A DNA stretch of 64,000 nucleotides from sequence record OQ718158.1. One strand, 5' to 3'. This DNA is from Escherichia phage vB_Ec-M-J. Positions 3,534 to 30,635 of this stretch are shown here, one piece after another; position 1 is the first letter of the stretch; the number at the start of each line of letters is the position of its first letter. Made by a program: the position numbers and the translations under genes. The notes under the pieces are model-generated. The model searched no databases and had not been told where the DNA came from. It saw only the letters and a program-made list of their open reading frames with translations.

Positions 3534-3551
3534 TTTTTCTTTTAAACGTAA

Positions 3552-3578
3552 GCCTCGAACTAGTTCGGGGCTTTTTTT
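3552..3578 (+). terminator. rho-independent terminator
   Basis: gcctcga-actagt-tcggggc hairpin (one G-U pair) followed by a run of seven T. Confidence 0.65.
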
Positions 3579-3582
3579 ATGC

Positions 3583-3597
3583 TAAATAAAGTATAAT
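3583..3597 (+). promoter_or_regulatory. late-promoter-like motif TAAATAaaGTATAAT
   Basis: TAAATA-N2-GTATA motif 26 nt upstream of ATG 3623; the same motif recurs upstream of the minus-strand fibre genes. Confidence 0.4.
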
Positions 3598-3622
3598 ACC
3601 TTATAAAATAAAAGAGGTTGCT

Positions 3623-5505: not shown

Positions 5506-6522
<1,017 letters not shown>

Positions 6523-6549
6523 CTTAAACGACCTTATGGAGTTATTAAA

Positions 6550-7083
6550 ATGAATAGATTACAACAAATCCTAACGGATAAAAAACCAGTTTTTGAATAC
6601 CGAGTCAAGTTTGCAGTTGAACCTACCAATGAGCAACTAAGTAAAGTATCACAACGCCTAATGGATCGTTATGATGCATTTGATATTGGTGCACTAAAGA
6701 AAACTATTTTCATGGAAAGACCACTAGATTTTTATGAATTAGATTGTGGTGAAATTTGGATGTTTGATTTCAAATGCCACCGTGGTGTTCAATCAAACGT
6801 ACTAATGTATGAAATTGGCAACCTACTAAGTATGACTGAAGCTCTAATCCGTGTACGTAGTAAAGATGAACCACGTCAACAAGAAATGACCGAACTCGAA
6901 GATGATATTGACTTTGACGATTACGAACCAGTAATTGGTGTTGATTTTGGTAAACCAGAAGACAGCCACGATTTAGCTGGTGAAGAACGTGCTGTAACCG
7001 CAGTTAAAGATGCGATTGAAGCAGTAAAAAGTGACAATAAATACTCTCAATATATGAGTGCTGGTTTTGGTAAAAAGGATTGA
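6550..7083 (+). CDS. hypothetical protein
   Basis: 177-aa ORF with GGAG Shine-Dalgarno, tightly packed in the operon. Confidence 0.7.
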   Translation: MNRLQQILTDKKPVFEYRVKFAVEPTNEQLSKVSQRLMDRYDAFDIGALKKTIFMERPLDFYELDCGEIWMFDFKCHRGVQSNVLMYEIGNLLSMTEALIRVRSKDEPRQQEMTELEDDIDFDDYEPVIGVDFGKPEDSHDLAGEERAVTAVKDAIEAVKSDNKYSQYMSAGFGKKD

Positions 7084-7086
7084 GAC

Positions 7087-7632
7087 ATGAGTATACTTAA
7101 TGAAATGTTAGATTATAATGATGAAGAGCTAAATGAAGCTCGTCCATATAGTCGTTCACAAAGTGCAGTAGATAGTGCAAAAGGAAAAGTAAAAGGCTTT
7201 TTCGGTAGTGGTCAAGTAGAACAAGGTGCACAAGAAGTTGGTGCAGAAGCAAACCGTCTTTGGGCTGAATTTAAACGCTATGTTGGACGCAAATACGGTA
7301 AAGCACAGCCATCAGTACCATATGCTGATGTTGCACAATTCTTCAAAGGAAATAACCTTGATATAAAACATTTGGGCAATAACAGTCGTCGTACTTTTAC
7401 TCCTAAAGATGTTGGTTCTGCTCTATTGGCAGCAGCACGTGACTTGATGAATGATTATCGTGATGATGATAAAGGTGAAGAACAACAACGTCCTGCACCA
7501 CAAGCTCAACCTGACAATGCTCCACAATCAGCACCACAGGAACAGCCAAAAGCACAAGGTTCTAGTATCCCTGATGCTCTACAAAAATTAAGTCCAGAGC
7601 AGCGTGAACAACTTTTGCGTATGCTTTCTTAA
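7087..7632 (+). CDS. hypothetical protein with a Q/P-rich C-terminus
   Basis: 181-aa ORF with AGGA Shine-Dalgarno. Confidence 0.7.
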   Translation: MSILNEMLDYNDEELNEARPYSRSQSAVDSAKGKVKGFFGSGQVEQGAQEVGAEANRLWAEFKRYVGRKYGKAQPSVPYADVAQFFKGNNLDIKHLGNNSRRTFTPKDVGSALLAAARDLMNDYRDDDKGEEQQRPAPQAQPDNAPQSAPQEQPKAQGSSIPDALQKLSPEQREQLLRMLS

Positions 7633-7645
7633 GGAGAATCAACAC

Positions 7646-9157
7646 ATGGATAATTTTTTCAGTACTGAAACTACCACAGTACCTAATGGATATGTATATA
7701 CTTCTCACACTGGTGGCAAATATGTATTTCTAGAAGGTTTCTGGTTTAACGACAATAATATGTTAATGGTAGACCCTAAAAAATACCCATCCATGTACGC
7801 AAGTGCTCGACAACAGATTGTTGAGCACAATCTATCTTCTAGTGAATATAAAATTGGTAACAAATATATTCTTGAAGGTAAAGAGTGTACATTTCTTGGT
7901 GAAAATCGTTTCAATTCTAAAGATGGAATTCTACTAACTGAAAGTGAAATTATCACTGAACTAATGGCAGATGACCACCGTGTATATAATGTTTCAAAAG
8001 AAACTCTACAAAAAGAATGGAACTCCCTAAAATTCTATATCCTTCCACCATATGCTGATGATATTTCTATTCCAGCAGGTATGGAAGTTAGTGGATTTAA
8101 ATTCATCCCTAAAAATCACCGTTTTGTTGATGCAAAATCTGGACGTCCAGTTGACCCAGCAATGACACGTAAACTTTCCGATGAAGGTATGCGTATTGCT
8201 CGCCAATTAGCACCAAAAAACAAACTAATTCCAATTAAATCTACTTTAGTACAAGGTAATACTCGTTCCGAATGGAATGGTAAAGAATTTTGTGATAATG
8301 ATGGTAATGTTGTAATTCCAGAACAAAATGCACATGTAATCTTTAATGCATATCAGCAATTTGTTAAGGCTAACCCTGGTGATTTTCCTTCACTAACTGG
8401 TGATCATGAATCAGGTGAACAACGTTTTGGTTCAGGTGAAAAGCCAGAACAACCCAAACAACCAGTAAAACAGCCAGTATTCGCAACAAAAGAATCCATT
8501 AATGAAGCAGATGAAGAGATTGAAGAAACTGAATCTGTTGTGGTTCCACATGGTTACCGCATTACTTCAAATAAAGGTAAAACATACATTAAACAAAAAA
8601 ATGCATGGTTTGATGTAGAAACTAAAAAACAACTAAATTCTAGTGCTGCAAAAAGTGTTGAACGTGCTGCTCAACGTGATATAATTCGCCATAATAGTTC
8701 TGGTGCAATGAAAATCGGAACTAAAGTAAAATCTAAGAAAGGCACAGAGTATTCTTATATCGGTGGTAACCGCTTTATTAGTGCTGATGGTAAATTGATT
8801 CCAAAATCAACTGCTGATGACATTCTTGCTCGTTATGATGCAGAACGTGCTGATAAGAAAGAAGAAGAACCTGAAGATAAAGTAGATGCTGAAGTATCAA
8901 GTACTGATGTAGTTGAACCAAAAGCTGAACCTACTAAAGAACCAGAACCTGTATCAGAGCCAGAACCTGAAGTTCCTGCTCCTGGTGATGAAGTTCAATC
9001 ATTGGCTTCACGAATTAAAGAATCACCTTACGCTAAGAAAATTACAGTACTCTTAACGCGTGGTGATGAGGTTTCTCTAATTGCTGCTGACATTTTACTA
9101 TCTGGTAAAAAGGATGAAACAGTGCAAATTTTAAAATCATTAAATAAGAATGATTGA
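7646..9157 (+). CDS. hypothetical protein with an internal duplicated module and a Pro/Glu-rich linker
   Basis: Track start 7604 is GTG and overlaps the upstream gene; ATG 7646 has an AAGGAGA Shine-Dalgarno. Duplicated segments PNGYVYTSHTGGKYVF... / PHGYRITSNKGKTYIK... and KIGNKYILEGKECTFLGENRFNSKDG / KIGTKVKSKKGTEYSYIGGNRFISADG. Confidence 0.7.
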   Translation: MDNFFSTETTTVPNGYVYTSHTGGKYVFLEGFWFNDNNMLMVDPKKYPSMYASARQQIVEHNLSSSEYKIGNKYILEGKECTFLGENRFNSKDGILLTESEIITELMADDHRVYNVSKETLQKEWNSLKFYILPPYADDISIPAGMEVSGFKFIPKNHRFVDAKSGRPVDPAMTRKLSDEGMRIARQLAPKNKLIPIKSTLVQGNTRSEWNGKEFCDNDGNVVIPEQNAHVIFNAYQQFVKANPGDFPSLTGDHESGEQRFGSGEKPEQPKQPVKQPVFATKESINEADEEIEETESVVVPHGYRITSNKGKTYIKQKNAWFDVETKKQLNSSAAKSVERAAQRDIIRHNSSGAMKIGTKVKSKKGTEYSYIGGNRFISADGKLIPKSTADDILARYDAERADKKEEEPEDKVDAEVSSTDVVEPKAEPTKEPEPVSEPEPEVPAPGDEVQSLASRIKESPYAKKITVLLTRGDEVSLIAADILLSGKKDETVQILKSLNKND

Positions 9158-9179
9158 TAACTAAAAGGATTTATTTAAA

Positions 9180-10169
9180 ATGGCTAAAAAAATTAATGAA
9201 GCACAAGTTAAAATCGATATCGCAGGACTAGAATCTGAAGATCTAGAAACACTATCTCGTATGCTTGCACTAGCTGGTCAAGCCGAGCGTCAAGCTTCTC
9301 CTGTTGCTGCTCCAGTTCCTTCTATGGGGTCAATGACCCCTTCTCTACCACCAATCGCTCCACTCGATATGGATTCAATTGGTGCTGGTGCAGAAGAAGA
9401 AGTTGGTGGTTCAATGGATGGTGCAATTGATGCACCTGTTGAAGACCCATTAGAAGTTGCTGCTGACTCACTATCTGCTGAAGCTGGTGATTTTGGTGGT
9501 GATTCTGAAGAAGTAAGTATGGATGCAGAGTTCGAAGAGCCTGGTGTTGCAGATGAAGAAGAGTTTTCTTTAGATCTTTCCGGTCAACCTCAACTAGAAT
9601 CAGTTGAAGAAGAGGAAGAAGAAGAAATCATCGAAGAAGAATTCGATTTCAGTCGTATGCTATCTCTAGCTGGTCTTCAAGACGAACCAGAAGATGAATA
9701 TTCAGTAGAAGGTAACCCAGATACTGAAGTTAAAGTTGAAGAAAACACTTTCCTACCAGACCTAACCATCTCTGAAGATGAAGAACAAGGTGACAGTACT
9801 GATTTTGGACCTTACAACACTGAAGCTGATGCCGTTCGTGACGGTCAAGCTAAAACTAATGGTGTAGAAGGTGACCACTTTGTTGTTATTACCAAGGGTA
9901 ACAAGTTTTACTGGAGACGTGTCGTTGATGAAGATGTTGACAACCGTCCTGAACCAGAGTACTATGACAATGACGGTAACGAGAACCGTGTTCACAAATT
10001 TGAACCTAAGTTCCCAGGTACTGCTCTAGGTGACAACCCACTCAATGTTAATGAGAGTGATGAGTCCGTGGAAGGTAACGAAGAACTAGAAGATGAAAGC
10101 GATGAAGAAGTCGAAGACATTTTCGAAAGTCTCCAGAAGAAATATCAACAATTTCTAGGGGACAAATAA
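9180..10169 (+). CDS. highly acidic protein (Asp/Glu-rich; repeated SRMLxLAG motif)
   Basis: 329-aa ORF with AAAGGA Shine-Dalgarno; long E/D tracts (EEEEEEEIIEEEFDF); LSRMLALAGQ and FSRMLSLAGLQ both present. Confidence 0.7.
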   Translation: MAKKINEAQVKIDIAGLESEDLETLSRMLALAGQAERQASPVAAPVPSMGSMTPSLPPIAPLDMDSIGAGAEEEVGGSMDGAIDAPVEDPLEVAADSLSAEAGDFGGDSEEVSMDAEFEEPGVADEEEFSLDLSGQPQLESVEEEEEEEIIEEEFDFSRMLSLAGLQDEPEDEYSVEGNPDTEVKVEENTFLPDLTISEDEEQGDSTDFGPYNTEADAVRDGQAKTNGVEGDHFVVITKGNKFYWRRVVDEDVDNRPEPEYYDNDGNENRVHKFEPKFPGTALGDNPLNVNESDESVEGNEELEDESDEEVEDIFESLQKKYQQFLGDK

Positions 10170-10170
10170 G

Positions 10171-10563
10171 ATGGGATATAATTATCGTGAATTGGTTGAA
10201 GCATTAGATGAAATCACTTCTAGTGAAGAATCTACTGAAGAAGAAAGTTTTGCAGTTGAGACTCCTTCTGATGCTGTTGCCACCGATTTACTTAAAGATA
10301 TCACCGAATGCCTTATCCACATTGTGGATAAGGTTAAATCAGGTGAAGATCAAAAAGAAATCGTAGAAAAGCTTCAAAAAGCGTGTGACATTTTATCGGA
10401 TGTTCGATATAATGATGAAAGTACTGAAGAAGTTGATGAATCCACTGATTGCTGCTTCGGAACCAAAGATATGGGTCCGAAAATTGGTAAAGATGGTGTC
10501 CAAGACTATAAAGTTAAAGATGCTCCTTCATATGCAGCAAGACAGGGTTTCGTGGGGATGTAA
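10171..10563 (+). CDS. hypothetical acidic protein
   Basis: 130-aa ORF starting 2 nt after the previous stop, with GGGGA Shine-Dalgarno. Confidence 0.65.
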   Translation: MGYNYRELVEALDEITSSEESTEEESFAVETPSDAVATDLLKDITECLIHIVDKVKSGEDQKEIVEKLQKACDILSDVRYNDESTEEVDESTDCCFGTKDMGPKIGKDGVQDYKVKDAPSYAARQGFVGM

Positions 10564-10566
10564 TTT

Positions 10567-10944
10567 ATGATTCCTGAACCACACAACAGTACTGAATTTC
10601 AAAACGATGTACTTTTAAAAGTTAGAGAAGTACATGGATCAGACGCTGAATTAACAGACCGTATGCTTCTGATGTCAATTTTTGAAAATTTCAGAACTGG
10701 CGGTGGTTTAAGACTTAGCAAGTTTGGATATACAATTTGTAAAGAAAACATTCTTTATGAATTTACAAAAATCCCCTTGCAAAGAGAGTTCAAAAGTTCT
10801 ATAATCTTTACATCGCTTGATAGGATATGTACTTCACCCTACTATGTAGAAGGGCAGTACATATACCTCTCGGACGCAATGATAGTTACAGAGTTAACAT
10901 TGTGTGGTGATGATTTTAGAATGTTATTTTCGATGCACATGTAG
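10567..10944 (+). CDS. hypothetical protein
   Basis: 125-aa ORF, 4-nt gap after the previous stop, GGGGA Shine-Dalgarno. Confidence 0.6.
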   Translation: MIPEPHNSTEFQNDVLLKVREVHGSDAELTDRMLLMSIFENFRTGGGLRLSKFGYTICKENILYEFTKIPLQREFKSSIIFTSLDRICTSPYYVEGQYIYLSDAMIVTELTLCGDDFRMLFSMHM

Positions 10945-10969: not shown

Positions 10970-10997
10970 TTGACAACGCCGAATGATGTGTTATAAT
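10970..10997 (+). promoter_or_regulatory. strong sigma70-type promoter P1 (TTGACA-N16-TGtTATAAT, A-rich upstream)
   Basis: Exact -35 TTGACA at 10970-10975 and exact -10 TATAAT at 10992-10997 with extended TGn; A-tract upstream. Confidence 0.75.
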
Positions 10998-11061: not shown

Positions 11062-11089
11062 TTGACAAGCCTGAACGATGTGATATAAT
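11062..11089 (+). promoter_or_regulatory. strong sigma70-type promoter P2 (TTGACA-N16-TGaTATAAT), tandem copy of P1
   Basis: Exact -35 at 11062-11067 and -10 at 11084-11089. Flanking sequence is nearly identical to P1 (gatgtg.TATAATGACCA). Confidence 0.75.
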
Positions 11090-11260: not shown

Positions 11261-12589
11261 ATGTCTACTCAAAACAACGATATCCTGAACGTAAAACTGA
11301 CTCCTAAGAAAGCTAAAGAAGCAATGGCACTGGCTGACATGATTCAAGATAGCCTGATGATTTGGGGTAGCCCTGGTATCGGTAAATCTGCTATCGCACG
11401 TCAATACGCTGATGAGAACTACCCACTGCGTAAAGATAACGTGGCAAAAATTGAGTTCATGAAACAACAAATCGAAGCTGATACTGAAAATGCTGATCAA
11501 CTTCGCCGTGAACTGGCAGCGTTTGAAGCCAAACTAATCGACCAAGACACTAACTTTATCGATTTCCGTTTGTCTCAGATTGAACCAAGTGACCTTCGCG
11601 GTATCCCAGTTCCAGAGAAAGTGTTCCTTGATATGGATGGTAAGCAACTGATTGAATCTGAACTGGCTAGTGCACAAGATTACATCGCTGAAACAGCAGT
11701 TGTGTGGGCAGCACCTAAAGTACTGAAGCTGTCTCCAGATTGGAAAGGTGTTATTCTGTTTGACGAAATCAACTCTGCAATGCCGATTGTACAGGCAGCG
11801 TCTTATCAGCTAATCCTCGACCGTTGTGTTGGTGAGATGAAGCTACCTAAGACTGCACTGATTCTCGCAGCAGGTAACCGTGAAACTGATGGCGGTGTAA
11901 CGTTCTCTCTAGCTACACCACTGCGTGACCGTATGACCCACATCGAAATGATTCCTTATCATCAAGATTGGATTAACGATTATGCGATTGGTAAGCGTTT
12001 GAACCCAGCAACTGTAGCGTTCATCAACAACACTGGTGCTAAACACTTCAACACCCTTAGCCCACAAGATCCTTCTCACTGTGGTGGTACTTCTCCACGT
12101 TCATGGGAAGCAGTAGCACGCTACGAAGATCTGAAGAAAGTTAAGAACATTGATAAAGAAGTGTTCCGTGCGATGATTGCAGGTCGTGTTGGTGAAGGCG
12201 TAGCAACTGAATACATCGAGTATGTTGATAACGTAGCTAAACTACCAGATACCATGTCCATCCTACAGGGTGAGATTAAAGAGATTGATGCTTCGCTTGA
12301 TATTTCCGCGAACTACTTCATCACTCTGAATCTGGTTTACAAAATTATCGACCTCTACAATGAGAAGCAAGAACAACGTCTACCAGTGGAAGATTGGGGT
12401 AAGCTGTGCAACAACTTCATCACCTTCCTAGACCATAACTTCTCTGCAACTCAAGCAGAACTGGCAGTACTGGCGATTCGTACCATCACGCTTCATAAAG
12501 TAGCGATTACGATTAAAGATGTACCAGCGTTTAAAGACTTCGTTATGAAGTACTCTGACCTAGTACGTAAAGCACGCTCTCTTGGTTAA
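11261..12589 (+). CDS. AAA+ ATPase, MoxR/CobS-like (AAA_5-type)
   Basis: Walker A GSPGIGKS and Walker B ILFDEIN; 442 aa; AAAGGA Shine-Dalgarno; immediately followed by a vWA-domain gene, the typical MoxR/CobS partner. Confidence 0.85.
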   Translation: MSTQNNDILNVKLTPKKAKEAMALADMIQDSLMIWGSPGIGKSAIARQYADENYPLRKDNVAKIEFMKQQIEADTENADQLRRELAAFEAKLIDQDTNFIDFRLSQIEPSDLRGIPVPEKVFLDMDGKQLIESELASAQDYIAETAVVWAAPKVLKLSPDWKGVILFDEINSAMPIVQAASYQLILDRCVGEMKLPKTALILAAGNRETDGGVTFSLATPLRDRMTHIEMIPYHQDWINDYAIGKRLNPATVAFINNTGAKHFNTLSPQDPSHCGGTSPRSWEAVARYEDLKKVKNIDKEVFRAMIAGRVGEGVATEYIEYVDNVAKLPDTMSILQGEIKEIDASLDISANYFITLNLVYKIIDLYNEKQEQRLPVEDWGKLCNNFITFLDHNFSATQAELAVLAIRTITLHKVAITIKDVPAFKDFVMKYSDLVRKARSLG

Positions 12590-12664: not shown

Positions 12665-14074
12665 ATGTCAGATAAACGTTTCAGTGATGTTACTCCGGCT
12701 CTCCAGAAAGAATGTCAAGATCGTCTGATCTTAGCTCGCACATCTTTAATGCTAACATTCCCATTCTTTGGTGTACTGGCTTCTCGTCTGCGTCCAGTTG
12801 CAAACAACACATGGTGTCGTACTTTGGCTGTAGATGGTAAGCATTTATTCTACAACGTAGAATTCATCATGGGTATTCAGGACCAATCCAAAAAGTCAGC
12901 ATACGAAGAAGCAATTCGTGAGAAACATCCTGAAGTAACTGAAGAACAACTTAAAGAAATGACAGAAGGTTTGACCGATGAAAACCTGATTGCAGTTATC
13001 TGTCATGAGATTCTTCACTGTGCATATGACCACTTCTTGCGTCGTGGTATGCGTGACCCGCAGCGTTATAACCGTGCTGCTGACTATGCAATTAACCAGA
13101 TTCTTGTTCGTGATAAAATTGGTAAAATCCAAAGCCAATGGCTGTACGATAAAAAGTACGATGGTATGACTGCTGAAGAGATTTATAACATTCTCGAAGA
13201 AGAAGATAAGCAGGATCAAGACGGAGAAGGTGAAGGAAATCCACAGGCTGGTAGTGGTGAGGGTGAAGGTAAATCACGCGGTACTTTTGGTGATATCAAA
13301 GATGGTAAAGGCAAAGGTACAACAATTGACCAGCATGACGTTCCACAAGAAGGTCAAGAGGGTGGTTCAAGTGAGAAACAAAAACGTGATTATATGGATG
13401 ATTTCAAAACAGCAATGATGAATGCTGCTCGTGCAGGTGGTACTCCTGCTGAAATCGCACGTATGATTAACAACTTCAAAGAACCTAAGATTGACTGGCG
13501 TTCCAAACTTCACCGCACACTGCGTAGCTGGTTGAAGTCTGATGCAACTTATCAAAATCCTAATCGTCGTTCATGGGGTGCTGGTTTTGGTAGTTCTGGT
13601 TCATTCTACGGGAATCCAATCTTCCCTGGTATGAAACCAGATGATGATATTGATATTGCAATTGCACTAGATGCATCCGGTTCTATCTCTGAAGATATGC
13701 TCCGTGATTTCATCAGTGAAGTACTGGGTATCACTAAGCAGTTTAAACAATTTAAAATCCGTATCATGACGTTCGATACTGAAGTTTATACTGTTAAAGA
13801 TTACAAAACTGGTGAAGAGAGTAAGATTCTCGAATATCCAGTGAAAGGTGGTGGTGGTACTGACTTTGAAGCAGTATGGGTTCATATGAAGCATGACAAC
13901 TATAAGCCTAAACAGCTTATTATGTTTACCGATGGTGAGCCGTGGCAGTCATGGGGTGATCCTGATTACTGTAAGACACTGTTTGTTATCCACAGTAATC
14001 CTAACAAACAAGCACCATTTGGCGAAACTGTACACTACGAATATGAAGCTGACAAAAAGCGTCAACGTAGCTAA
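12665..14074 (+). CDS. vWA-domain protein with N-terminal HExxH putative metallopeptidase (DUF2201/CobT-like)
   Basis: HEILH motif in the N-terminal half; C-terminal vWA MIDAS-like residues DASGSIS ... GGGTDF ... FTDGEP; Gly-rich acidic linker; GAGGAA Shine-Dalgarno. Confidence 0.8.
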   Translation: MSDKRFSDVTPALQKECQDRLILARTSLMLTFPFFGVLASRLRPVANNTWCRTLAVDGKHLFYNVEFIMGIQDQSKKSAYEEAIREKHPEVTEEQLKEMTEGLTDENLIAVICHEILHCAYDHFLRRGMRDPQRYNRAADYAINQILVRDKIGKIQSQWLYDKKYDGMTAEEIYNILEEEDKQDQDGEGEGNPQAGSGEGEGKSRGTFGDIKDGKGKGTTIDQHDVPQEGQEGGSSEKQKRDYMDDFKTAMMNAARAGGTPAEIARMINNFKEPKIDWRSKLHRTLRSWLKSDATYQNPNRRSWGAGFGSSGSFYGNPIFPGMKPDDDIDIAIALDASGSISEDMLRDFISEVLGITKQFKQFKIRIMTFDTEVYTVKDYKTGEESKILEYPVKGGGGTDFEAVWVHMKHDNYKPKQLIMFTDGEPWQSWGDPDYCKTLFVIHSNPNKQAPFGETVHYEYEADKKRQRS

Positions 14075-25544: not shown

Positions 25545-25568
25545 TGTTAATATACTTATATTTAGTTT
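25545..25568 (-). promoter_or_regulatory. late-promoter-like motif AACTAAATATAAGTATATTAACAA (minus strand)
   Basis: 48 nt upstream of ATG 25497; nearly identical 24-mer upstream of ATG 30567. Confidence 0.45.
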
Positions 25569-30611: not shown

Positions 30612-30635
30612 TTGTTAATATACATATATTTAGTT
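30612..30635 (-). promoter_or_regulatory. late-promoter-like motif AACTAAATATATGTATATTAACAA (minus strand)
   Basis: 45 nt upstream of ATG 30567. Confidence 0.45.

Follow-up and report, generated by a model that had tools for sequence, protein, structure and literature searches.

What is the role of two strongly acidic proteins that are encoded side by side between the tail genes and the early genes of a jumbo phage? The question is raised by positions 9180-10563 of a 64,000-nucleotide stretch of DNA (the window) from Escherichia phage vB_Ec-M-J (OQ718158.1). By sequence identity the window belongs to an Asteriusvirus, or RaK2-like, jumbo myovirus of the T4 superfamily; its identity over 6 kb is 99.7% with the Escherichia phages Turkey3, EC.P1 and fEgEco12, and for 121Q and phAPEC6 the figure is 84%. 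Two open reading frames (ORFs) are at issue:

9180-10169, + strand: ORF A, a 329-aa, extremely acidic virion protein of PHROG 15988, mostly disordered in its AlphaFold2 (AF2) model
10171-10563, + strand: ORF B, a 130-aa acidic helical protein of PHROG 14971, translationally coupled to ORF A

We propose that both are head-internal proteins that are processed by the prohead protease, and we put the probability of this reading at about 0.5. An earlier, sequence-only reading of the locus had described ORF A as dominated by Asp and Glu and ORF B as acidic too, and the computed values agree. ORF A has a pI of 4.05, with 93 Asp and Glu residues (28.3%) against 20 Lys and Arg, a net charge of about -73 and acidic runs such as VEEEEEEEIIEEEFDF, while ORF B has a pI of 4.21 and 24.6% Asp and Glu. 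They are the most acidic pair among the 42 ORFs of the window, and their 121Q orthologs rank 2nd and 4th in acidity among the 446 ORFs of at least 100 aa in that genome.

Orthologs in purified virions

The syntenic orthologs of ORF A are gp560 in 121Q, gp267c in phAPEC6, gp050 in RaK2 and CBB_213 in CBB, and those of ORF B are gp561, gp266c, gp051 and CBB_214, respectively. Both proteins match families labeled “virion structural protein”, ORF A over its full length (PHROG 15988, residues 1-329, E = 8e-124) and ORF B over residues 3-130 (PHROG 14971, E = 1.5e-44). The virion proteomes used here (RaK2, CBB, phAPEC6 and JP4) are protein-level tables. Mass spectrometry of CBB virions recovered CBB_213 with 5 peptides (18.9%) and CBB_214 with 1 peptide (PMC5259590), RaK2 virions yielded 1 peptide of gp050 (5.3%) and 2 of gp051 (18.7%; PMC3622015 Table S3), and phAPEC6 virions 1 peptide of gp267c (4.9%), the ORF B ortholog not being listed (PMC7247149). 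Low peptide coverage of ORF A is partly expected because the protein offers few suitable tryptic peptides: about 42% of it lies within tryptic peptides of 7-35 aa, and one stretch of 122 residues is devoid of Lys and Arg. Coverage arithmetic places the single ORF A peptide of phAPEC6 and that of RaK2 at aa 12-27, and gives no unique solution for CBB_213.

Association of ORF A and ORF B with the virion is therefore very probable. This basic finding is not new, because both families are already catalogued as virion proteins. The published virion proteomes assign the orthologs neither a location nor a function, and it is on these two points that the sequences have more to offer.

N-terminal peptides and candidate protease sites

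The prohead protease gp21 of phage T4 cuts after L/I-x-E (PMC9026906), and the internal proteins of T4 carry N-terminal propeptides of 10-19 residues, the capsid-targeting sequences (CTSs), that target them into the core (PMC9026906; PMC3012670). Residues 8 and 10 of the CTS of internal protein IPIII govern its processing (PMC9026906). Three candidate elements of this kind are found in ORF A and ORF B, the arrow marking the presumed cut here and below:

9180-9200, + strand: CTS-like propeptide candidate of ORF A, MAKKINE, ending in a gp21-type I-N-E↓A and followed by A8
9753-9776, + strand: LPDLTISE, a candidate protease site 5' of the folded domain of ORF A, with the family consensus LLPDLSLxE↓D
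10171-10200, + strand: CTS-like propeptide candidate of ORF B, MGYNYRELVE, 10 residues with L8 and E10, followed by A11

Family comparisons cover 48 members for ORF A and 14 homologs for ORF B. In ORF A, residues N6, E7 and A8 are invariant and the peptide ends in [LI]xE in 43 of the 48. The ORF B peptide has exactly 10 residues, with L8 and E10 at the two positions on which processing of the IPIII CTS depends, and [LI]xE↓[AS] stands at the position of Glu10 in all 14 homologs, including RaK2 (MFDYRKLME↓A) and CBB (MSNLRKLME↓S); the N-terminus of T4 gp24, for comparison, is MAKINELLRE↓S. A short conserved N-terminal peptide that ends in L/I-x-E and is followed by Ala or Ser is thus a feature shared with IPI-III and Alt of T4. 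The second ORF A element is also well kept, with P193, D194 and L195 invariant, E199 conserved in at least 90% of the family and [LI]xE at E199 in 46 of 48 members. Other L/I-x-E triplets lie at domain boundaries at E188 (30/48) and E316 (48/48), and 39 of the 48 homologs have [IL]xE↓S after the second of the two LAG motifs described below.

The N-terminal signature, defined as [LI]xE[AS] with Glu at positions 6-20 in ORFs of at least 100 aa, is rare in 121Q, where 15 of 446 ORFs carry it. Among the carriers are the major capsid protein (MSQLLNE↓S), the scaffold (MSKLEKLLKE↓S), gp600, which resembles T4 gp67 (MANLKLLQE↓A), and two other virion proteins. ORF A and ORF B close a block of six small and medium genes (5965-10563), most of whose orthologs are virion proteins, and four of these six are carriers in 121Q (hypergeometric P = 1.2e-5). 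In the window a relaxed pattern is met in 4 of the 6 block genes as opposed to 1 of 35 others (P = 7e-4), and none of the 24 tail, baseplate or fiber ORFs of the window has an N-terminal L/I-x-E↓A/S. The N-terminal sites of the block are kept in RaK2 and CBB; in metagenomic relatives the ORF A site is kept and the ORF B site only in part. The signature common to the block, a candidate for combined targeting and gp21-type cleavage, is new here. The corresponding machinery is encoded in 121Q by gp601 (gp21-like protease), gp602 (gp22-like scaffold) and gp603 (gp23-like major capsid protein), genes that lie outside the window and whose presence in this phage is taken from relatives of 84-99% identity.

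Position at the end of a late-type structural operon

Upstream of the block lie the sheath gene, three tube paralogs and a gp4-like head-completion gene. The same neighborhood recurs in distant metagenomic relatives, in the order gp13-like, deoxynucleoside monophosphate kinase, sheath, tubes, gp4-like, a few small genes and an ORF A-like gene. Three promoter-like elements frame the locus:

3582-3600, + strand: late-promoter-like CTAAATAAAGTATAATACC, directly 3' of a terminator at 3550-3573
10970-10997 and 11062-11089, + strand: two tandem perfect sigma-70 promoters, TTGACA-16-TGnTATAAT, near-identical and each after an A-tract

The element at 3582 (CTAAATA...GTATAATA) resembles elements 5' of minus-strand structural genes, where CTAAATA[TA]A[AT]GTATATTA occurs at 25548-25565 (-) and 30616-30633 (-); this minus-strand pair matches the 18-mer pattern exactly, with 0.08 matches expected by chance. 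The 3582 element is a candidate start of an operon running through ORF A and ORF B. On the + strand after 3582 no convincing terminator is found until past the MoxR gene that follows the locus, the only two matches, at 7803 and 8762, being weak and within genes. ORF A, ORF B and the next ORF, of 125 aa, are translationally coupled, with stop-start spacings of 1-4 nt. The sigma-70 pair falls within a 317-nt gap before the MoxR gene and marks the boundary with the MoxR/vWA genes. These promoters imply strong (early) transcription by host RNA polymerase directly after the late-type structural operon. With a late-type promoter 5' and sigma-70 promoters only after the block, ORF A and ORF B appear as the tail end of that operon, and the placement of the locus between tail genes and an early block by the sequence-only reading holds at both ends.

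The CTAAATA elements stand directly downstream of intrinsic terminators and are a candidate late promoter of this phage group, and 121Q encodes a late sigma factor. For the T4 late promoter TATAAATA, also considered, no enrichment was found and no copy lies upstream of the block; the CTAAATA-type motif fits better.

Conserved islands in ORF A and ORF B

When 1.84 billion representatives were searched exhaustively with a profile, no more than 85 relatives of ORF A were found. Its N-terminal module occurs in single copy per genome in 72 of 50,697 isolated-phage records, all of them RaK2-like, and a search of the same genomes for the module or the LAG motif found no second copy of the module. The alignment shows conservation limited to islands, between which acidic linkers vary freely in length and sequence. 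The principal elements of the two proteins are as follows:

9243-9281, + strand: LAG motif 1, ORF A aa 22-34, LETLSRMLALAGQ, part of a predicted helix at 19-38
9360-9791, + strand: acidic, Pro/Ser/Gly-containing disordered region, ORF A aa 61-204, identified from the charge profile and a predicted local distance difference test score (pLDDT) below 50 over most of it
9642-9677, + strand: LAG motif 2, ORF A aa 155-166, FDFSRMLSLAGL, with a short predicted helix at 157-163
9795-9929, + strand: small beta-alpha-beta-beta domain, ORF A aa 206-250, GPY..E..AV.DG...TNGVEGDHFVVITKGNKFYWRR, pLDDT 88-97
10110-10157, + strand: C-terminal amphipathic helix, ORF A aa 311-326, VEDIFESLQKKYQQFL, holding an invariant I-F-E↓S (48/48)
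10459-10560, + strand: conserved C-terminal tail of ORF B, FGT..M.PK....G...YK.K.APSYAARQGFVGM, a low-confidence prediction

The islands of ORF A comprise residues 1-36 (M.KKINEA.V.ID..GLES.DL.TLSRMLALAGQAE), motif 2 (FD[MF].RM..LAG[IL].E), LLPDLSL.E, the domain at about 206-250, TALGDNPL and the C-terminal helix (DIFESL..KY..FLG). The region from 61 to 204 is variable in length and sequence and is interrupted by motif 2. About 75% of ORF A is predicted to be disordered: the AF2 model has a mean pLDDT of 59.6, about 131 residues fall below 50, the acidic tracts are unstructured, and helices are confined to 19-38, 90-100, 157-163 and 311-326. The domain at 206-250, in which G210, T226, N227, G228, F234, W245 and R247 are invariant, is the sole confidently folded part, and a stand-alone 62-aa version of it exists (P0167). 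Distant relatives keep the N-terminal module, a Met/Asp/Gly-rich linker and the C-terminal parts, and have one or two further motifs of the form ..L..ML.L[AS]G[VIL]. In ORF B, AF2 predicts helices at 5-18, 34-56 and 61-83, plus acidic loops.

Neither protein resembles a characterized family. No Pfam or NCBIfam family was found for any of the 48 ORF A family members, a PDB sequence-profile search with ORF A was empty, and Foldseek searches of PDB and BFVD with both AF2 models returned own-family members only. For ORF B all Pfam matches were sub-threshold, NCBIfam gave none, and the PDB profile search found only de novo helical bundles, matches that are due to generic helical composition. One of the Pfam matches, PF12699 (phiKZ_IP), reached 18.6 bits against a cut-off of 27 in 4 of the 14 members (the query and three close relatives); equally weak matches to generic helical families accompany it, ORF A does not match it, and the lead was rejected.

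The LAG motif and the tail of the scaffold protein

The sequence-only reading had picked out two copies of an SRMLxLAG motif in ORF A, and both are present, as LSRMLALAGQ (aa 25-34) and FSRMLSLAGL (aa 157-166). A relaxed pattern, [LIMFV]..[LIMFV]..L[AS]G[LIMVQ], finds only these two sites in the 20,504 aa of window proteins and 9 sites in the 153,906 aa of 121Q six-frame ORFs. The probability of at least two sites in one 326-aa protein is about 1e-4, and the repeat is not a product of chance. The retrieved homologs, which extend down to about 35% identity, show hardly any variation in motif 1 and conserve motif 2. The Ser codons of the two copies belong to different codon families (TCT and AGT), which indicates that it is the protein sequence of the repeat that has been maintained, and that no recent duplication of DNA produced it.

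A comparable peptide closes the gp22-like scaffold, the C-terminus of which in 121Q and JP4 is ...DDMAFLKELDVLSGINKK. An ending of the form h..h..L[A/S]G[I/L/M], where h is hydrophobic, is found in 119 of the 120 listed scaffold homologs (P0178-P0297, 33-100% identity), the only exception, P0218, being a truncated sequence of 307 aa. Many of these homologs come from marine T4-like phages or metagenomes. The peptide sits a few residues from the C-terminus and has hydrophobic residues at -8 and -5, L at -2, A or S at -1 and then G, followed by I, L or M, as in VELEQIRKLAGLSR, IIEIKRLAGLQ and YLEELSILSGIIKK. Both LAG motifs of ORF A fit this pattern, and a position-specific scoring matrix (PSSM) made from the ORF A-family motif places the 121Q scaffold tail in 7th rank among 137,643 positions, ahead of all other C-terminal tails. 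The two peptides are alike in being short amphipathic helices; they differ in that the ORF A motif is internal and duplicated, not terminal. The resemblance is a new and moderately supported lead drawn from sequence comparison, and through the LAG motif ORF A may bind the same partner as the scaffold tail. The shared tail of herpesvirus UL26/UL26.5 and the cargo peptides of encapsulins are analogous docking or cargo-loading peptides.

Three further observations concern this motif. T4 gp22 itself is without the h..h..L[A/S]G[I/L/M] ending. The 121Q scaffold, gp602, lies at 34438-35553 of L015, outside the window. A 125-aa hypothetical protein of 121Q, gp546 (L021 10335-10712), encoded about 2 kb upstream of the left end of the window and two genes before the gp13-like neck gene, contains DIFELEQIEYLAGQ; DIFELEQIEYLAGQ is the best non-self match of both LAG PSSMs, as the protein looks folded, the match may be due to chance, and it was rejected as a candidate.

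Comparison with known internal and core proteins

A first parallel is found in T4. The lineage of this phage has a gp21-like protease, a gp22-like scaffold and a gp23-like major capsid protein, and orthologs of the proteins in question are found in virions, as are the T4 internal proteins. Those of T4 are small folded proteins of basic character. ORF A and ORF B, in contrast, are strongly acidic and predicted to be largely disordered, and their genes are not near the head-core genes. No homology to T4 internal proteins, Alt, gp67 or gp68 was found with Pfam or NCBIfam, and visual comparison showed a likeness in composition only. That likeness is to gp67 and gp68, and to gp600 of 121Q, in which a helical N-terminus is followed by a poly-acidic tract. 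T4 gp67 has a pI of 4.05 and 44% Asp and Glu, and gp67 and gp68 are substrates of the prohead protease whose acidic fragments are kept in heads. Compared with gp67, ORF A is the larger protein, it contains a folded domain and LAG helices, and its gene belongs to another module; the canonical position between portal and protease is already occupied in this phage by a gp67-like gene. In 121Q this gene is gp600 (L015 32879-33727, outside the window), which encodes 282 aa between portal and prohead protease; with a helical N-terminus, a long poly-acidic tract and 31% Asp and Glu it looks like T4 gp67 and is the most acidic protein of 121Q.

A second parallel is phiKZ, whose inner-body proteins are likewise encoded in a run of consecutive virion-protein genes. 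Its gp97 has a pI of 4.05, 25.9% Asp and Glu, an acidic disordered region of about 460 residues and a small folded C-terminal domain. As the same pI is shared by phiKZ gp97 and T4 gp67, acidity alone does not discriminate between a packaged protein and a DNA mimic, and it is no argument against a place inside the head. Processing in phiKZ uses S/A/G-x-E sites, unlike the L/I-x-E found here, and the abundance of ORF A and ORF B appears to be low. Phages 121Q and phAPEC6 contain a phiKZ-like inner body, measuring 91 x 18 nm in phAPEC6, and have no phiKZ homologs (PMC5646251; PMC7247149). The authors of the phAPEC6 study proposed RCC1-like genes as candidates for DNA-organizing inner-body proteins (PMC7247149). 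In 121Q these form a tandem of about 13 minus-strand genes, gp234-248 (L018 17089-31255, outside the window), one of which has an N-terminal [LI]xE[AS] match.

T7 Ocr and ArdA share with ORF A and ORF B a very low pI and a large net negative charge. They differ in being rigid, DNA-shaped dimers that are produced early; ORF A is predicted to be disordered and belongs to a late-type structural operon with conserved structural synteny.

Proposed role and alternatives

We suggest that ORF A and ORF B are expressed late, incorporated into the prohead and in part kept in the head after maturation, and would thus be functional counterparts of the T4 internal and prohead-core proteins. MAKKINE↓A and MGYNYRELVE↓A would act like the capsid-targeting sequences of T4, each ending at a site for the gp21-like protease. 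The LAG helices of ORF A might dock to whatever the scaffold tail binds, either the interior of the shell or the core. Cuts by the protease in ORF A would fall behind residue 7, ahead of the folded domain and within the C-terminal helix, and in most homologs also behind motif 2. The fragments retained in the head could add to the DNA-embedded inner body of 121Q and phAPEC6 and may accompany the DNA on ejection. Of the two options of the sequence-only reading, the packaged internal or scaffold protein is therefore the one retained, on the strength of the PHROG virion families, the orthologs in RaK2, CBB and phAPEC6 virions, the late-type structural operon and the N-terminal L/I-x-E↓A peptides. 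The DNA mimic has no positive support beyond composition.

The finer parts of this proposal are less secure than the whole. A docking function of the LAG helices, or membership of the proteins in the inner body, is a tentative suggestion, although the block at 5965-10563 is a reasonable candidate source of inner-body proteins. More speculative is the idea that h..h..L[A/S]G[I/L] is a general prohead docking peptide of the T4 superfamily and ORF A a bivalent, protease-processed, polyanionic organizer of the inner body, which we regard as improbable at present; such an organizer might leave the head together with the DNA, and a cargo-loading tag could be derived from its motifs.

Several observations weigh against a head-internal, processed role. 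Placement in the head, as opposed to the neck or tail, and cleavage are both inferred from sequence patterns. Orthologs were not detected in the virion proteomes of GAP32 and JP4 (49 proteins in JP4), and the 1-5 peptides recovered elsewhere speak against a major component present at 100-200 copies; the low and inconsistent counts likewise speak against ORF A as a major inner-body component. The peptide at aa 12-27 is tryptic at both ends and hence uninformative on cleavage at E7. L/I-x-E is a motif of three residues with many chance occurrences in Glu-rich proteins, and motif 2 of the window itself is followed by LQD and not by L-x-E. The likeness between the LAG motif and the scaffold tail is a post hoc observation and is modest when the test is reversed: a PSSM of scaffold tails ranks motif 1 only 28th, with a per-protein P of about 0.06. 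The internal proteins of T4 are basic, so that a different reason would have to be given for packing an acidic protein with DNA. No homology to any characterized internal protein was found: hhalign of the ORF A family with phiKZ gp97 gave a probability of 0.2%, and PF12699 is sub-threshold and confined to 4 of 14 ORF B members. Finally, the block lies in a neck- and tail-side module, about 60 kb from the genes for portal, protease, scaffold and major capsid protein.

Some of these points would be explained if ORF A and ORF B acted during assembly only, as scaffold- or chaperone-like factors for head completion or for neck or tail attachment, possibly with the MoxR/vWA proteins, and were mostly removed before the virion was complete, the few mass-spectrometric peptides being remnants. 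Low peptide counts and inconsistent detection agree with this, as does the location of the genes directly between the gp4-like head-completion gene and MoxR/vWA. The metal-ion-dependent adhesion sites (MIDAS) of vWA domains bind acidic ligands. Iyer et al. propose the MoxR-vWA-peptidase pair as a chaperone for virion assembly and processing (PMC7824862), and in T4 most fragments produced by cleavage of gp22, gp67 and gp68 are lost from the head (PMC9026906), a fate that the several conserved L/I-x-E sites of ORF A would fit. Yet orthologs are detected in three independent purified-virion proteomes, the strong sigma-70 promoters of the MoxR/vWA genes indicate that their timing probably differs, and the pair is absent beside distant ORF A relatives (L009, L011). 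We consider an assembly-only role unlikely, while recognizing that it overlaps with the head-internal reading and differs from it mainly in the amount of protein that stays in the head.

Composition invites a different comparison, with polyanions that mimic DNA and block host DNA-binding defense or nucleoid proteins, type I restriction-modification enzymes or nucleases for example, whether co-injected or made in the cell. A net charge of about -73 and a pI of 4.05 suit such a role, T4-type internal proteins delivered by a CTS are often anti-restriction factors (PMC3012670), and a disordered chain might pass readily through the tail. Known mimics are, however, compact folds with fixed charge arrays, whereas some three quarters of ORF A is predicted to be disordered; none of the 48 family members shows similarity to Ocr or ArdA or to a Pfam or NCBIfam family, and no PDB or fold match was found. 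The gene belongs to a late-type operon and is in neither an early nor a leading position, its strict synteny with structural genes over long distances contrasts with the fast turnover of anti-defense genes, and conservation centers on short docking-type motifs and not on the acidic parts. A DNA mimic thus seems quite improbable, and we give about as little credence to a minor structural role outside the head, in a collar, whisker or tail-surface decoration. For the latter speak the position among neck (gp13-like), sheath, tube and gp4-like genes, the unassigned location in published proteomes and the unexplained tail “hairs” of CBB (PMC5259590). Against it, the N-terminal signature is absent from all 24 tail, baseplate and fiber ORFs and present in the 121Q major capsid protein, scaffold and gp67-like protein; a polyanionic disordered protein with neither an oligomerization domain nor a beta-rich fiber domain would be atypical for an external fiber, and the family also occurs in phages without CBB-type hairs.

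The interest of the head-internal reading lies in the fact that 121Q and phAPEC6 are, in the cited literature, the only non-phiKZ phages with an inner body seen by bubblegram imaging (PMC5646251; PMC7247149). The six-gene block is nominated here as a set of candidate head-internal proteins, of which ORF A and ORF B are the most distinctive, and it comes with two testable sequence rules, the N-terminal L/I-x-E↓A peptide and the scaffold-tail-like LAG helix. If the reading is correct, the capsid-targeting principle of T4 extends to jumbo phages of 350 kb, a conserved scaffold-tail motif has been identified across T4-like phages, and a handle becomes available for packaging cargo into very large capsids. 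If it is not, ORF A and ORF B remain ordinary minor virion proteins.

Other genes of the block and its surroundings

The four genes of the block upstream of ORF A are:

5965-6522, + strand: 185-aa acidic ORF with the N-terminus MKPKQQVDE↓ALGLP
6550-7083, + strand: 177-aa virion protein, detected in proteomes better than any other member of the block
7087-7632, + strand: 181-aa ORF with a conserved ..L(N/Q)E followed by (A)RPY at residues 15-18 (..ELNE↓ARPY in the window)
7646-9157, + strand: 503-aa virion protein directly upstream of ORF A, PHROG 16305

In the 185-aa ORF the site is kept as [VI]xE↓ALG.P in RaK2 and CBB, and two metagenomic relatives are without the Glu at the cleavage position (GIEH↓ALGVP and TIED↓ALGIP). 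Orthologs of the 177-aa protein are found in virions of CBB (CBB_210, 13 peptides, 60.5%), phAPEC6 (gp270c, 41%) and JP4 (JP4_291). The ortholog of the 181-aa ORF in RaK2, gp048, is present in virions; several records label this ORF “Hsp70 heat shock protein”, and it has no Hsp70 or other Pfam match. Orthologs of the 503-aa protein were detected in phAPEC6 (gp268c, 6 peptides) and RaK2 (gp049, 7 peptides) virions. This protein has an apparent internal duplication (VPNGYVYTSHTGGKYVFLEGFWFND... and VPHGYRITSNKGKTYIKQKNAWFDVE...) split by acidic and Pro-rich linkers; its mechanical start, GTG at 7604, overlaps the previous gene, and the annotated start is ATG at 7646.

Downstream, the 125-aa ORF coupled to ORF B (10567-10944, + strand) keeps its synteny in RaK2 (ORF052) and CBB (CBB_215). 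It is labeled “transcriptional regulator HdfR” in fEgEco12, a label without support; it has no N-terminal L/I-x-E signature, and its orthologs have never been detected in virions. Beyond the sigma-70 promoters follow a MoxR-type AAA+ ATPase (11261-12589, + strand) and a DUF2201 metallopeptidase-vWA protein (12665-14074, + strand). A functional link of ORF A and ORF B to this pair was considered and down-weighted on the grounds given above, namely separate sigma-70 promoters and absence of the pair beside distant relatives. The vWA-metallopeptidase gene, which matches PF13203 at 1.5e-36 and PF09967 at 1e-21, is widely mis-annotated as an “HNH endonuclease” (PHROG 1314, RefSeq). In virions, the ortholog of the MoxR ATPase was detected in phAPEC6 with 6 peptides and that of the vWA protein in JP4 with 1 peptide.

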